A stretch of 64,000 nt of DNA from Methanothermococcus sp. (GTDB taxonomy: Archaea; AGJL01; Methanococci; Methanococcales; Methanococcaceae): assembly GCF_015523155.1 (NCBI RefSeq), contig NZ_WAKW01000003.1:3695-67694 (forward strand), written 5' to 3'. The position numbers and the translations under genes are program-made. Below are positions 2,915-61,886 of the stretch, in pieces (position 1 is the stretch's first letter; each line of letters starts with the position of its first letter). The notes under the pieces are model-generated. The model was not told the DNA's origin and ran no database searches. It was given only the letters and a program-made list of their open reading frames with translations.

Positions 2915-4132
2915 TCACTTGGCTATGCAGGTGATTTCATTATCCAACATCTTCAAAACCTTTCTAAGAGGTATTTTTAATTCTTCTGCTATTTTTTTGG
3001 CGTCTTCATATTCTGGTTTCATATTTATTATTTTATCATCAATACATGATATTTTCACATTAAATTTAAATTCCTTGCCATTTATATTAATAAAATGGGT
3101 TTTTTCAATTCGCTCTGCCTTTATCCTATCTATCTCTTTTATTCTTACCCCTAATGTTCCAGTTTCTTCCATAAGCATTTTTGCAAGTTTTTCAGATTTT
3201 GCATAATTTGTGATTACAGAAATAATATTGGTGGGTCGGTTTTTCTTTCCGATACCATTTACAACAAATACTTCTTTTGCCCCTTCATTTAGTAGTTTTT
3301 CAAAAAGATTTCCTATAATCTCCCCAGAAACATCATCTACATTGGTTTCAAGCACAACCATGTTTTTTTCTATATTTTTGTTTATTTTTCCTTCAATAAC
3401 TCTTAAAATATTTGGGACTTCTTTTAATATTTTTGAGCCTCCACCATATCCAACTTTTATGGGCGTCATAGGGGGGAAGTTATCCACAATTTCATCAACC
3501 ACATTGGAAAGTACGGCAATGCCCGTTGGTGTAGTATGTTCAAATTTAGTGGCATAAGGTGGATTGGAGTATTTTATACCATGTTTGCATAATATTTCAA
3601 GGGTAGCAGGAGCAGGAACTGATAAAATACCGTGTTCCATACTCACATATCCACCGCCAAGAACTGGGGGTGTGGAGTATATTTTTCCGTTCAAAAATCC
3701 GTTTTTTTCAAGGAGCATTACGCTTCCAACAACATCAAAAACTGTATCAAGGGATGCCACTTCGTGAAGGTGGAAGTCGGTTTTATGGAGCTTTTTTTCG
3801 GCAGATATTAAATCGTCTATAATATTACAGATTATGTTCTTTGCCCTTTTGGATAAATTCAAATTATTAGAAACTTCCTTAACGGCATCTTTTAAATCTT
3901 CTGGGCGGTGAAATCTATCTTCAATTATATTCATATAAAGCTTTTTTACCACTATACCGTTTATTTTTTCTTCCTTAATATTTACTTCAAATTTTTTGCA
4001 GTTTTTTAGATTGTTGATGGTGGAGGTGAGCTCACATAATAAATCAATATCATCGGTTAAATCAATAAGTGCAGATATGAACATATCACCGGATATTCCA
4101 GATATTTTGGGGTCTATAATTAGAGTTTTCAT
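2915..4132 (-). CDS. larC: LarC-family nickel insertion protein
   Basis: SGISGDM, FHLHEV..LD, HGILSVPAPATLEI, TPTG, LETNVDD motifs. Confidence 0.9.
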   Translation of the reverse strand: MKTLIIDPKISGISGDMFISALIDLTDDIDLLCELTSTINNLKNCKKFEVNIKEEKINGIVVKKLYMNIIEDRFHRPEDLKDAVKEVSNNLNLSKRAKNIICNIIDDLISAEKKLHKTDFHLHEVASLDTVFDVVGSVMLLEKNGFLNGKIYSTPPVLGGGYVSMEHGILSVPAPATLEILCKHGIKYSNPPYATKFEHTTPTGIAVLSNVVDEIVDNFPPMTPIKVGYGGGSKILKEVPNILRVIEGKINKNIEKNMVVLETNVDDVSGEIIGNLFEKLLNEGAKEVFVVNGIGKKNRPTNIISVITNYAKSEKLAKMLMEETGTLGVRIKEIDRIKAERIEKTHFININGKEFKFNVKISCIDDKIINMKPEYEDAKKIAEELKIPLRKVLKMLDNEITCIAK

Positions 4133-4217
4133 ACTATCACTTTTTTATATTAAATGAAGGAAATAATATTTAAAATATATTCCTATTTTAATCTTTAATT
4201 TAATAAATTATACGTAT

Positions 4218-5042
4218 ATGTTATATGATTATCATCGTGATATTATGTATATCTTAAAAGTGGCATATGATGAATATAATTATGGATTCCAATCTCAACC
4301 ACATAAAGAAACCGTTTGTGATAAAATAATGGATGCTTTAAGAGAATGTAATTATTTAGCAAATGATAAAATAATTTTTTATGGTGGAAGGACTGATAAA
4401 GGCGTTTCTGCAATTGGAAATTTTATAGTGGTGGAATTAAACCAAGAGCCGATTTTATCCTATATTTATTCAAAATTAAAAAATAAAGGAATTTGGATTT
4501 TAGGCTACAACAAAATAAATGCCATTCCAGAGGTAAAATATAGACATTATAGGTATATATTGCCTAATATGCTATATGATGATGAATATAATATTGATTT
4601 AATGAAGGAGGCTTCAAAAAAAATCATAGGAACGCATTCATTCCATAACCTATCAAAAAGAGATAGAACAAAGGAAAAAAGCCCCATTAGGACAATATAT
4701 GATATAAAAATTGATGAAAATCCATATTATATTACAATTGATGTTATCGGCAAAAGTTTCCTGTGGAATATGGTAAGAAAAATAATTACTGCACTATCCG
4801 AGGTGGGAAAAGAAAATAAATCTTTGGGATGGATAGATGAACTCCTGTGTGAAAACTATAAAGAGGGCGTAGCACCGGCACCAGCAGAGGGGCTTATACT
4901 GATGGATGCAAAAACTGATGTAGATTATATTTACGATAGCTATGTGTTAAATAGATTTAAAAGGGAGTGGATGGAAAACTATAAAAAAACAACCATGAAA
5001 TTAGGAGTATGTAGAAATATGGTAAATTCGTTTAATATATAA
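4218..5042 (+). CDS. truA: tRNA pseudouridine(38-40) synthase
   Basis: YGFQSQP, GRTDKGVSA catalytic motif, GTHSFHN, FLWNMVRKI. Confidence 0.92.
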   Translation: MLYDYHRDIMYILKVAYDEYNYGFQSQPHKETVCDKIMDALRECNYLANDKIIFYGGRTDKGVSAIGNFIVVELNQEPILSYIYSKLKNKGIWILGYNKINAIPEVKYRHYRYILPNMLYDDEYNIDLMKEASKKIIGTHSFHNLSKRDRTKEKSPIRTIYDIKIDENPYYITIDVIGKSFLWNMVRKIITALSEVGKENKSLGWIDELLCENYKEGVAPAPAEGLILMDAKTDVDYIYDSYVLNRFKREWMENYKKTTMKLGVCRNMVNSFNI

Positions 5043-5050
5043 AAAGAGTA

Positions 5051-5258
5051 GTGAATTACTCCCCTCCGTCTTAAAATGGACTCTCCCATCGCAAATCTTT
5101 ATTTGCGAGCTAAAATCCAAAGGATTTTTTAATCCCTTATCTTCGCGAAGCGAGGGGATTAAACAGAATGCTTCGCATTTTGTAGCTCACCAACTTTGTT
5201 GGTGATTTTAAAAATCTTTGATTTTTAAGACGGAAGGGGACTTCTTGCGGAATAAGTT
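5051..5258 (-). mobile_element. Non-autonomous hairpin-array element, copy A (IS200/IS605-end-like termini)
   Basis: Outer inverted repeat 5061-5076/5223-5239 encloses six short hairpins; termini GTGAATTACT and GAAGGGGACTTCTTGCGGAATAAGTT shared with copies at 23886-24215 and 61457-61871. Confidence 0.7.
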
Positions 5259-17843: not shown

Positions 17844-17905
17844 TTTCGCTTACTTCGTAAGCGAAATGAAGGATTTATAACAAGGGGCTTCCTGTGCTAT
17901 AAGTT
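17844..17905. repeat. Truncated copy D of the hairpin-array element
   Basis: CGCTTACTTCGTAAGCGAAATGAAGGATTT and degenerate terminus AAGGGGCTTCCTGTGCTATAAGTT match copy B. Confidence 0.7.
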
Positions 17906-23621: not shown

Positions 23622-23885
23622 AAAATTATTTATTAATATGAACCAAATTATATAAATTGAATAGGATAAAAAAGTTAAATTAAGTTTTTTTATTATTCCT
23701 CTGATTTAACAAATTCCACTACCATAAGCCATATACGCAATAATCCAAAAAAATAATGGAAGGAATATGTAATTTCTGAATGCAAATCTAATCCGTTATT
23801 AATTTCAAATAGTAATATTAATTAATATTGACAATTACAAATACCATGTCGGTTAAAAAGGTTTTAAGTTTATTATTATATGTTA

Positions 23886-24215
23886 GTGAACTACTGGCCT
23901 TATGGACGAAGCTTCCAGCCTGTCCCGTAGTCTTCACAGGCGTCACTGCACTGTCAGTCTTTGGACCTTTTCATTTAGGTAGCAATAAAATATTTGAGAA
24001 TAACTATATAATTATATAAATTACGGCTTTCATCCTTCCGTAGCGAAGCGGAGGCTACAACTAGAAAAACCTTCGGTTTTTGTTGCTCACTTACTTTGTA
24101 AGCGAAATGAAGGATTTTTTATCCCTTATCTTCGCGAAGCGAGGATATATTACAATCAAACGAAGTTAAAATCCGAAGGATTTATAACAGAAGGGGACTT
24201 CTTGCGGAATAAGTT
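23886..24215 (-). mobile_element. Non-autonomous IS200/IS605-derived element, copy B (hairpin array plus omega-RNA-like end)
   Basis: Reverse complement aligns with 61457-61871; on the minus strand ends GGAAGCTTCGTCCATAAGGCCAGTAGTTCAC. Confidence 0.7.
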
Positions 24216-24237
24216 GAAAATAAAAATTGGTGATTAC

Positions 24238-25356
24238 ATGATAGATGATAAAATAAGAGATATAGTGAAATCTTTTAAAGCCTATGTTCCAGGGAAATCA
24301 AAGGAAGAAATAGCAAGAAATTACGGGATAAACCCAAAAGATATTATAAAATTAGGTTCAAATGAAAACCCATGGGGATGCTCTCCGAAAATAAAGAATG
24401 AAATATTTAAAGAGATTCCAAAAATTTATCAATATCCAGAACCAATAAATCCAATACTCATGGAAGAGCTCTCCAAATTTACAGGAGTTTCAAAGGAGAA
24501 TATTGTTGTTGGTGGAGATGGTGCAGATGAGATAATAGATGCAACAATGAGGATATTGGTAAATAACGGCGATGAGGTAATTATTCCCATACCCACATTT
24601 ACACAGTATAGAATATCCGCATTAATATATGGTGCAAAGGTAAAATATGCAAAATTTGACAAGGAAAAGGATTTTAAATTGGATATTGATAGTATTTTAA
24701 ATAATATAACAGATAAAACAAAAATTATATTTCTATGTACCCCCAATAATCCAACAGGAAATATAATCGATAAAAAGGACATTGAAAAAATCATAAATTC
24801 AACGGACGCATTGGTGGTAATAGACCACGCCTATATAGAATATTCAAAAGAGGAATACGATTTAACAAACTGGGCATTAAAGTATGATAATGTTTTGGTG
24901 TTAAGAACATTTTCAAAGGTATTTGGTTTAGCAGGCCAGAGAATAGGCTACGGTATTACAAGTAAAAAAATCGTAGATTATATGATGAGGGTTAAACCAA
25001 TATTCAGTTTAACAAGATTAAGCCAAATCTGTGCTATTACAGCACTAAGAGATAAGGAATTTTTCAATAAATCAAAAAATGATGGTATAAAGAGCAGAGA
25101 AATATTATACGAAGGATTGAAGAAATTTAAAGAATTAAAAGTATATCCATCTGAGGCAAACTATCTTTTAGTTGAGGTTAAGAATGGTATGAGCTCAGGT
25201 GAGTTTTGTGAAGAACTCTTAAAAAGAGGGGTAATTATAAGAGATTGCAAGTCTTTTGAAGGACTTGATGGAGAGTATGTAAGGGTTGCCATTGGAACTT
25301 TTGAAGAGGATAAAAGATTTTTGGAGATTTTAAGGGATTTAATGATGAATATCTAA
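24238..25356 (+). CDS. hisC: Histidinol-phosphate aminotransferase
   Basis: [37 protein letters not shown]. Confidence 0.93.
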
Positions 25357-32230: not shown

Positions 32231-32343
32231 GCCGAGGTGGCTTAGGCTGGTTATAGCGCTCGGCTCATACGGATATTCCCAAGGTGCTTTTCCTTGGGTC
32301 CTGGGAAACCGAGAGGTCGGGGGTTCAAGTCCCCCCCTCGGCA
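32231..32343 (+). tRNA. tRNA-Met(CAT), probably elongator, with 38-nt intron at 37/38 (32270-32307)
   Basis: GCCGAGG acceptor, CTCGG-CTCATA, BHB motif (CUCA/UGGG central helix, UA|C and AA|A bulges), GGTTCAAGTCC T-arm. Confidence 0.93.
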
Positions 32344-61368: not shown

Positions 61369-61456
61369 TGTATCATCTATTTTTTATATTTTTTTATTTT
61401 CATAATTAAGTTATATTTTATTTTTTTCATTATATAATTTTATTTTATTTAATTTT

Positions 61457-61871
61457 AACTTATTCCACAAGAAGTCCCTTCTGTTATAAATCCTTCGGAT
61501 TTTAACTTCGTTTGATTGTAATATCTCCTCGCTTCGCGAAGATAAGAATTAAAAAATCCTTCATTTCACTTACAAAGTAAGCAAGCAAAAATCGAAATCT
61601 CCGATTTCGAGCTACAAAACTCGAAGAGTTTTGTTTAAACCGAAGGTTTTTCTAATTAGCATTGAACAATAGTGATGAAAACTTAAAAGTTAGTTTTAGG
61701 TCTCCACTTCGCTACTGGGGGATGAAAGCCGAAAATTATTTATATAACTATTCTCACAATATTTATTGCTACCGAAAAGAAAAGGTAGCCTAGGGCTGGG
61801 ACAGTCCGAAGTGACGCCTGTGGAGACTACGGGACAGGCTGGAAGCTTCGTCCGTAAGGACAGTAATTCAC
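61457..61871 (+). mobile_element. Non-autonomous IS200/IS605-derived element, copy C (hairpin array, TATA, tnpB-tail/omega-RNA-like end)
   Basis: Same termini as copies A and B; 61784-61871 translates GSLGLGQSEVTPVE (TnpB-tail-like) and ends GGAAGCTTCGTCCGTAAGGACAGTAATTCAC. Confidence 0.72.
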
Positions 61872-61886
61872 TGAATATATTCCATT

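Follow-up and report, generated by a model that had tools for sequence, protein, structure and literature searches.

Elements known as PATEs are defined by the lack of inverted repeats and target duplications and by near-terminal palindromes related to those of IS605-type elements (Dyall-Smith et al. 2011, PMC3119063). They have been described in Haloquadratum walsbyi and Natronomonas pharaonis, with HqIRS71 included among them; 52-bp terminal-only forms were generated by repeat-mediated deletion, one PATE carries a disrupted remnant of the TnpB C-terminus, and small repeats insert into the palindromes (PMC3119063). In Geobacillus stearothermophilus, PATE-like non-autonomous IS605 elements encode omega-RNAs for use in trans (Meers et al. 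2023, PMC10055086), and the proposed logic combines mobilisation by TnpA with homing by TnpB, both provided in trans (PMC10055086). Since PATEs encoding omega-RNAs have already been described, a protein-free omega-RNA cassette is a known phenomenon. The RNAs derived from the 3' ends of haloarchaeal IS1341-type tnpB genes, termed sotRNAs, are, in the account cited here, the ones now called omega-RNAs (Gomes-Filho et al. 2015, as cited in PMC12558985).

The window analysed here is a 64-kb stretch originating from a hydrothermal-vent MAG of a Methanothermococcus sp. (GCA_027074775.1, contig JALTCH010000029.1); the contigs of metagenome run X1 were mapped for read depth. The proteins encoded in the window are 92-95% identical to those of Methanothermococcus sp. 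Ax23. An earlier note had described positions 23886-24060 as a protein-free cassette resembling an omega-RNA gene. We consider it highly probable, from sequence comparison, that this stretch is the right part of a PATE (copy B) derived from an IS200/IS605 (IS1341-type) element, and that copy B is a decaying fossil. All of the motifs quoted in the note were found on the minus strand when the sequence was read directly (Table 1), and the GC-rich block of copy B runs on this strand from GTGACGCC to GTAGTTCAC, ending at 23886. The cassette is indeed part of a repeat, but the 175 nt are not self-contained, as they constitute the 3' part (the right-hand third) of a 328-nt unit. Pairwise alignment with its paralogue, copy C, placed the bounds of copy B at CTTATTCCGCAAG... 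(24213) and ...GTAGTTCAC (23886, minus strand). The alignment spans CTTATTCC... to ...TTCAC, similarity ends abruptly on both sides, and the read depth of the source metagenome contigs goes up inside the element.

Comparison of the window with itself (blastn) revealed one strong paralogue of copy B, at approximately 61460-61880 on the plus strand (E=8e-40 and 6e-46). Two arms were aligned: 23885-23947 with 61810-61872 (63 nt, 94% identity) and 24080-24195 with 61476-61591 (116 nt, 93% identity). The strong match of the 3' scaffold to copy C, pointed out previously, is therefore real and far beyond chance. Pairwise alignment showed that copy C contains two hairpin blocks that are additional to those of copy B.

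Table 1. Features of the PATE family in the window and of two related elements
Feature	Position	Strand	Remarks
PATE copy A	5051..5256	minus	206 nt; ends as in B and C, different interior
Copy D	17846..17905	minus	truncated fragment, left end only
PATE copy B	23886..24213	minus	entire mobile unit, 328 nt; alignment to C
Left-flank target/TAM-like pentamer of B (TTCAA)	24214..24218	minus	
Left-end (5') module of B	24080..24213	minus	93% identity to C
Inner left-end-type hairpin of B, CCUCCG-CUUCGCUA-CGGAAGG, then AUGAAAGCCG	24024..24054	minus	
Hairpin CCTCCGCTTCGCTACGGAAGG	24054-24034	minus	string quoted in the earlier note, located
ATGAAAGCCG	24033-24024	minus	quoted string, located directly after hairpin CCTCCGCTTCGCTACGGAAGG
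Archaeal TATA-box-like TTTATATA	24013..24020	minus	conserved in B and C
GCTACC	23983-23978	minus	quoted string, located
GTGACGCCTGTGAAGACTACGGGACAGGCTGGAAGCTTCGTCC...GTAGTTCAC	end at 23886	minus	quoted string, located
Eroded omega-RNA scaffold remnant of B (tnpB 3' end and right end)	23886..23964	minus	
Terminal oligonucleotide TTCAC of B	23886..23890	minus	right-end boundary (transposon-encoded motif)
Right flank of B, TAACATATAATAATAAACTT	23866..23885	minus	unique to the locus; quoted in the earlier note as TAACATATAATAATAAAC
PATE copy C	61459..61871	plus	413 nt; better-preserved paralogue of B
TTTAA (TAM) of C	61454-61458	plus	
AUGAAAGCCG of C	61722-61731	plus	
TATA of C	61739-61746	plus	
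Hairpin H0 of C	61768-61789	plus	
Scaffold of C	61790-61871	plus	
L002	1767-1812 of JAALLR010000010.1		another MAG; degenerate left-end pattern search
Scaffold-bearing PATE of Ax23	L030:5098 to ~5480 (CP157522.1)		GTPase / M24-peptidase spacer

The left-end module of copy B begins with a 17-nt linker, CTTATTCCGCAAGAAGT (24197-24213), followed by CCCCTTC, the hairpin GUUAUAAAUCC-UUC-GGAUUUUAAC and more hairpins. Within the family, this module is the one present in high copy (depth of ~630-2900x, compared with a baseline of ~150x). In the inner left-end-type hairpin, the pair closing the loop shows a compensatory change from G-C to A-U between B and C. The octamer TTTATATA that comes next is, judging by the motif, probably a promoter inherited from the region upstream of tnpB; it occurs 38 times in the 64-kb window. 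The scaffold of copy B has kept helix P1 (GCCUGU/ACAGGC) and lost P0, and its right-end hairpin (GUCC-AUAA-GGCC) is weakened. As the note had stated, the flank TAACATATAATAATAAAC differs from that of copy C, but a shared scaffold with a different flank is seen in any transposed copy, so it is no evidence of guide use; the flanks of B and C differ because of transposition. The right flank of B would serve as a guide only if an omega-RNA were made, and its near-matches in an off-target scan were AT-rich only and at chance level. The probable ATG of an aminotransferase gene, at 24239, lies 25 nt downstream of the end of copy B, and the annotated TTG start (24202) of this 384-aa protein falls inside the element. 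The ATG at 24239, preceded by GGTGATTAC in a context like that of other gene starts in the window, appears to be the likelier start.

Four members of the family were detected in the window (copies A, B and C, and fragment D). Copy A (5051-5256) folds with z=-5.9: five or six perfect hairpins with short loops (3-4 nt) stand in a row inside a single long stem (CCCCUUCCGUCUUAAAA / UUUUAAGACGGAGGGG), in which one U-G pair is conserved. The omega-RNA scaffold is absent from this copy. Copy A sits between two convergent genes, right after both stop codons. A degenerate left-end pattern identified one real relative in public metagenomes, the 45-nt element L002 (AACTTATTCCGCAAGAAGTCCCTTCCGTAAGGGAGGGTAATTCAC), in which a single hairpin is flanked by a 5' and a 3' linker, as well as three chance matches; the same pattern had no match in viral contigs. 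The exact left-end 22-mer was not found in the genome-contig collection, nor the exact right-end 22-mer in metagenomes, and blastn of copy B against plasmids gave no match.

The pentamer preceding the left end is TTTAA at A, C, D and L002, and TTCAA at B. In the window, TTTAA has a frequency of about one per 160 nt, and its recurrence at the exact junction is therefore not due to chance. At the opposite end, TTCAC holds the last base shared by B, C, A, a third copy from the metagenome and L002, and in B, C and the third copy similarity stops exactly after it. Of 11 haloarchaeal right ends examined, 10 also terminate in this motif and one (L016) in TTCAA. A comparison of the sequences flanking A, B, C, L002 and the third copy revealed no target-site duplication; all that they have in common is the 5' TTTAA (TTCAA at B), TTCAC being internal. 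Terminal inverted repeats are also absent, as the 5' CTTATTCCGCAAGAAGT... and 3' ...AGTAATTCAC are not reverse complements. In A and L002 one hairpin, CCCCUUCC...GGAGGGG, is common to both ends, as in terminal-only PATEs. The right-end hairpin of C is GUCC-GUAA-GGAC and its left-end hairpins are of other sequence; in B and C the hairpins of the two ends do not resemble each other, in contrast to classical IS200/IS605 ends. The hairpin is preceded by a linker of ~17 nt (5') and followed by one of 8-10 nt (3').

The description of the cassette as protein-free was borne out. The element contains no credible protein-coding sequence, its longest ORFs being of 63 aa (antisense) and 42 aa, and the annotated 57-aa product is a singleton without a Pfam match. 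Several stems include G-U pairs, which can form on the sense strand but not on its complement. The hairpin modules within the PATEs (window 61592-61660 and 5160-5205) are short perfect palindromes. One module, GAGCTACAAAA-stem-GAAG-stem-TGTTTAA, is found in both A and C with stems that differ yet are complementary (CTC/GAG vs TGC/GCA). By analogy, these modules may be comparable to the small repeats known as insertions in the palindromes of Haloquadratum PATEs.

Read depth in the source metagenome changes in steps that coincide exactly with the inferred boundaries of the elements. Against a baseline of ~110-150, the depth reaches 3000-5000 at the ends of copy A (~3200-5000x against 148x for this copy), with sharp edges at 5050/5051 and ~5260. 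The left end in B and C has a depth of 1500-2900. In C, values of 1150-2430 were obtained across the promoter, H0, P0 and the CCGAAGTGACGCCTGTGGAGACT part, whereas the B/C-specific final 35 nt have only ~310, equal to three copies. The copy number is ~20-35x for the left end, ~25-35 copies per genome equivalent for copy A, ~4-5x for the promoter-to-scaffold junction identical to that of C, and three for the B/C-specific tail.

Both ends of the element are homologous to those of IS605-type (IS1341-group) transposons. The outer 5' end of the family, CCGCAAGAAGT-CCCCTTCC, matches the left end of Halomarina and Natrinema elements (GCGCAAAGG-CCCCTTCC...GGGAGGGG), and the linker CTTATTCCGCAAGAAGT with CCCCTTCC resembles haloarchaeal IS1341-type left ends (GCGCAAAGG-CCCCTTCC). 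The inner hairpin with ATGAAAGCCG matches the left end of TnpB elements of Natronomonas and Halorientalis (hairpin followed by GGATGAAGCCGACAAC), the left-end homology comprising a hairpin plus GGATGAAGCCG. The order of parts in B and C can be read as left-end material, the former tnpB promoter with its TATA box, a deletion of almost the whole of tnpB, and the tnpB 3' end with the right end.

The origin of the 3' scaffold was traced through its reading frame (...GSLGLGQSEVTPVETTGQAGSFVRK... in C, ...VTPVKTTGQAGSFVHK... in B), which still spells the TnpB C-terminal motif LGLGQSEVTPVET. In Natronomonas pharaonis this motif is part of a protein annotated as TnpB, where it precedes the stop by 28 residues (tblastn against plasmids; E=9 for this match alone), and residues 365-389 of the protein match C at 61754-61828. 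The DNA at this site is nearly identical (CTGGGACAGGCCGAAGTCACGCCCGTGGAGACTGC...GGCGGTTCAC in Natronomonas vs CTGGGACAGTCCGAAGTGACGCCTGTGGAGACTAC...AGTAATTCAC in C). Ten further haloarchaeal tnpB 3' ends were combined with that of Natronomonas, and a profile HMM of these 11 right ends (nhmmer) matched C at 61790-61831 with E=1.9e-8; its sole other match was B, at 23947-23926 (E=0.59). A covariance model was also built from nine haloarchaeal right ends, leaving out the Natronomonas sequence, which had given the first match to the window. Helices P0, P1, P2 and P3 of the model covary among the nine sequences. With filters off, it aligned to C from end to end (61790-61871, 40.5 bits, E=1.7e-6), and the runner-up in the window was copy B (23886-23964, ending exactly at TTCAC; 13.2 bits, E=0.5). 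The covariance check that the note had proposed thus upheld the resemblance to omega-RNAs for copy C, but B by itself is not significant against the haloarchaeal models (E=0.5-0.6) and owes its assignment to paralogy with C (94% identity). Taken together, the comparisons support an omega-RNA origin of the B/C scaffold.

A 19-mer of the scaffold core, AGTGACGCCTGTGGAGACT, is identical at the 3' ends of two bacterial tnpB genes, from a Synechococcus MAG (L017:81-99) and a Thermoflexus MAG (L018:3826-3844); the other matches in the genome contigs were three chance ones, and none in this collection came from Methanococcales. The sharing suggests that the omega-RNA core is very widely conserved across domains. 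For the 42-aa remnant, a word-indexed protein search gave no candidates and an exhaustive HMMER search gave only one spurious repetitive protein. Scanning against Rfam (gathering thresholds and E<=10, including RF02656 and RF02657) returned nothing relevant for B or C, a negative that carries little weight, because the scan also missed three haloarchaeal right ends (L006, L008, L012). Rfam also called a 113-nt tRNA at window positions 32231-32343 (plus strand) that was not reported by ARAGORN; it probably contains an intron.

The sotRNAs of haloarchaea and the B/C scaffold share the core CUAGGGCUGGGA..CCGAAG..ACGCCYGUGGAGACU ... GAAGCAGGAAGC, followed by a hairpin and (A/G)UUCAC. Like the sotRNAs, C has P0 and P1, and the overlap with the TPVET coding sequence is the same. 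In contrast, B and C lack P2-P3, a domain of ~50 model positions that is replaced by 11 nt in both copies, are detached from tnpB and have a TATA box of their own directly upstream. The family agrees with haloarchaeal PATEs in the absence of inverted repeats and target duplications, the subterminal palindromes, the conserved oligonucleotides (a short target one at the 5' junction, a terminal one at the 3' end), the ends of IS1341 type, and the retention in some copies of a disrupted remnant of the TnpB C-terminal coding sequence. The 45-nt, single-hairpin L002 mirrors the 52-bp terminal-only haloarchaeal forms. The differences lie in the host, a hyperthermophilic methanogen (Methanococcales) of 32% GC, in the mosaic structure of B and C, which include an additional series of short, perfect hairpins, and in the mutual dissimilarity of their left-end and right-end hairpins. 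With the Geobacillus elements, B and C share the lack of a protein, ends in common with TnpB elements and the presence of an omega-RNA region. However, in Geobacillus the omega-RNAs are expressed and TnpA and TnpB have been identified, whereas B and C are known from DNA alone and the flagged copy is degenerate.

The degeneration of copy B is evident from its comparison with C. The scaffold of C folds into four hairpins (H0, P0, P1 and the right-end hairpin; -37.4 kcal/mol, z=-2.68), with the MFE structure equal to the centroid, and its antisense strand gives z=-0.66; the fold of B (z=+0.52) is no better than that of shuffled sequence. The conserved secondary structure of the scaffold is thus not found in B, and C retains all four hairpins without P2-P3. 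In B, a 4-nt deletion takes away the P0 loop, and the last 63 nt contain four substitutions relative to C, three of which damage conserved features. The invariant GUGGAGAC, intact in C and with its GAGAC unchanged in nine aligned haloarchaeal sequences, has become GUGAAGAC in B; the right-end hairpin loop has changed from GUAA to AUAA, and a U-A pair of the same hairpin is replaced by a U/C mismatch. Judged by its sequence and predicted fold, copy B is most likely a decaying fossil rather than a working guide-RNA gene. The third metagenome copy carries the P0 lesion of B as well, which indicates that the damaged variant has still been copied. This is to be expected if the RNA is dispensable for mobility, which would depend on the ends and on a transposase acting in trans.

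The insertion sites were compared with the corresponding regions of related genomes. Synteny breaks at B (window 23622-24238): aroE is followed here by the PATE and the aminotransferase gene, and by moaE in Ax23 and M. okinawensis (L026, L029). Owing to this different neighbour of aroE, there is no empty site for B in these two genomes. Copy C sits in the spacer between the GTPase and M24-peptidase genes, which is variable among relatives. It is 16 nt long in Methanothermococcus sp. AD-155-M21, representing an empty site, and 305 nt, without a PATE, in a M. okinawensis MAG. In Ax23 the spacer has 444 nt and contains a different protein-free element with a fuller scaffold, in the same orientation as C (covariance model 46.8 bits, E=1.1e-7; fold z=-3.79). 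Its right end reads CCCCUUCC-GUAA-GGAAGGGG-UACUUCAC, and the TGA at which the GTPase gene stops is contained in GTGAA, the complement of the terminal TTCAC. Hairpin H0 is kept in C and in the Ax23 element with a different stem sequence, and the PATE copies are poorly conserved between species. On sequence evidence, scaffold-bearing PATEs are present in at least two Methanothermococcus species.

No tnpB beyond the remnant in C, and no tnpA, was detected in the 64-kb window (tblastn), and related genomes, over 70 kb, likewise yielded neither tnpA nor a cognate tnpB. Among relatives a TnpB was seen only in Ax23, where it is part of an IS607-type element and has a 3' end unrelated to the scaffold. 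At L026:13582-15484, this element carries genes for a TnpA of the serine-recombinase type and for a TnpB of 435 aa whose N-terminus is MJ0013-like. Its neighbours are the Na/H exchanger and Ile-tRNA synthetase genes, and the corresponding site in M. okinawensis does not contain it. In run X1, a 579-nt contig of ~10x depth matches window positions 61791-61826, and carries the scaffold core with other flanks (GC-rich CTTGCACAAGTGAACCACCCTCACGAGCGA upstream, a fuller scaffold GTGCTGTTGCACTCGTTAAAGCGGGAAGCT downstream). It may represent a multi-copy, fuller or autonomous element that still has tnpB. The sequencing runs containing the window locus are of DNA only, and related vent metatranscriptomes lack coverage even of the flanking genes and so have no bearing on transcription.

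As we picture the family, B and C have kept the left-end linker with its hairpins, the inner left-end hairpin with AUGAAAGCCG, and the TATA box that presumably once drove tnpB. Nearly all of tnpB has been deleted, leaving the last 80-100 nt of the gene and the right end, the part that forms the omega-RNA scaffold in autonomous elements. A Y1 TnpA acting in trans would move the unit as single-stranded DNA and insert it 3' of TTTAA, with the end at TTCAC, leaving no inverted ends or target duplication. Intact relatives may be transcribed from the internal TATA box into an omega-RNA of ~105 nt, whose 3' extension into the flank would let TnpB made elsewhere cut the emptied site, so that the element is restored. 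Both trans-acting partners, TnpA and TnpB, are assumed, and the recognition by TnpA of the dissimilar end hairpins of B and C is putative.

Could copy B itself, as the note reads it, be an active protein-free omega-RNA gene, transcribed from the TATA box to 16-20 nt past TTCAC and directing a TnpB from elsewhere to cut the TAM-flanked empty site? The TATA box, helix P1, the right-end linker and TTCAC are retained, the promoter-to-scaffold junction of the family is amplified to several copies, the 579-nt contig (~10x), with the scaffold motif in other flanks, may be a multi-copy element with tnpB, and omega-RNAs carried by PATEs are expected to act in trans (PMC10055086). Such activity is nevertheless unlikely, given that P0 is deleted and GUGGAGAC mutated, that the right-end hairpin has lost one pair and its GUAA loop, and that the fold (z=+0.52) does not surpass shuffled sequence. 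The left-flank pentamer is moreover TTCAA and not TTTAA, and no TnpB is known for the scaffold (there is none in the window). The host might also have co-opted the cassettes, as promoters or antisense RNAs acting on neighbouring genes or as structured RNAs independent of TnpB. Co-option would explain why protein-free units of promoter and scaffold persist in two Methanothermococcus species. The window and Ax23 carry different scaffold-bearing elements in the same GTPase / M24-peptidase region and in the same orientation, the right end in Ax23 supplies the GTPase stop codon, H0 is kept there and in C despite its different stem sequence, and B ends 25 nt from the likely ATG (24239) of the aminotransferase gene. 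Intergenic accumulation is, however, normal for MITE-like elements, and with copies that are scattered, poorly conserved between species and, in the case of B, visibly decaying, we regard this explanation as very improbable.

The family may also be real and yet be moved by something other than a Y1 transposase, such as an IS607-type serine recombinase or copying through an RNA intermediate. The sole TnpB element found in a relative is of IS607 type, in B and C the hairpins of one end are dissimilar to those of the other, and several stems contain G-U pairs that form on the sense strand only. Yet the ends, with their subterminal hairpins and TTCAC terminus, are homologous to those of IS1341-type elements, the linker geometry and the terminal-only copies fit PATEs of IS605 type, and no sequence is common to the IS607 element and the PATEs, which makes a different mover very unlikely. 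Three further candidates were rejected: a MITE with TA duplication, which the flanks do not fit; REP/BIME-like arrays, since the hairpins are all different and the ends homologous to IS605; and the IS607 element as a parent, for lack of shared sequence.

A derived PATE with a decaying copy B is the reading that we retain. It is a rather doubtful extension of it that in Methanothermococcus the promoter and a mini-omega-RNA, lacking P2-P3 and detached from tnpB, form a cassette that is itself the amplified and maintained unit, served by a few TnpB genes in trans or re-used as RNA independently of TnpB. If so, homing by cutting and repair would be very efficient in a polyploid host, or, in the case of re-use, TnpB-independent RNAs would act on the 3' ends of adjacent genes.

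The identification of the family flags two probable annotation errors, the spurious 57-aa ORF and the TTG start at 24202 within the element. Copy C and the Ax23 element, judging from their sequences, are candidates for a working trans-acting omega-RNA, and it is these, not B, that are worth testing for omega-RNA expression. The exact ends and the likely TAM (TTTAA) could guide the hunt for a compact thermophilic TnpB. The recurrent GC-rich, hairpin-rich repeat of this AT-rich methanogen is explained as a family of PATEs originating from IS1341-type TnpB elements, which extends to the Methanococcales a class documented so far in haloarchaea and Geobacillus.
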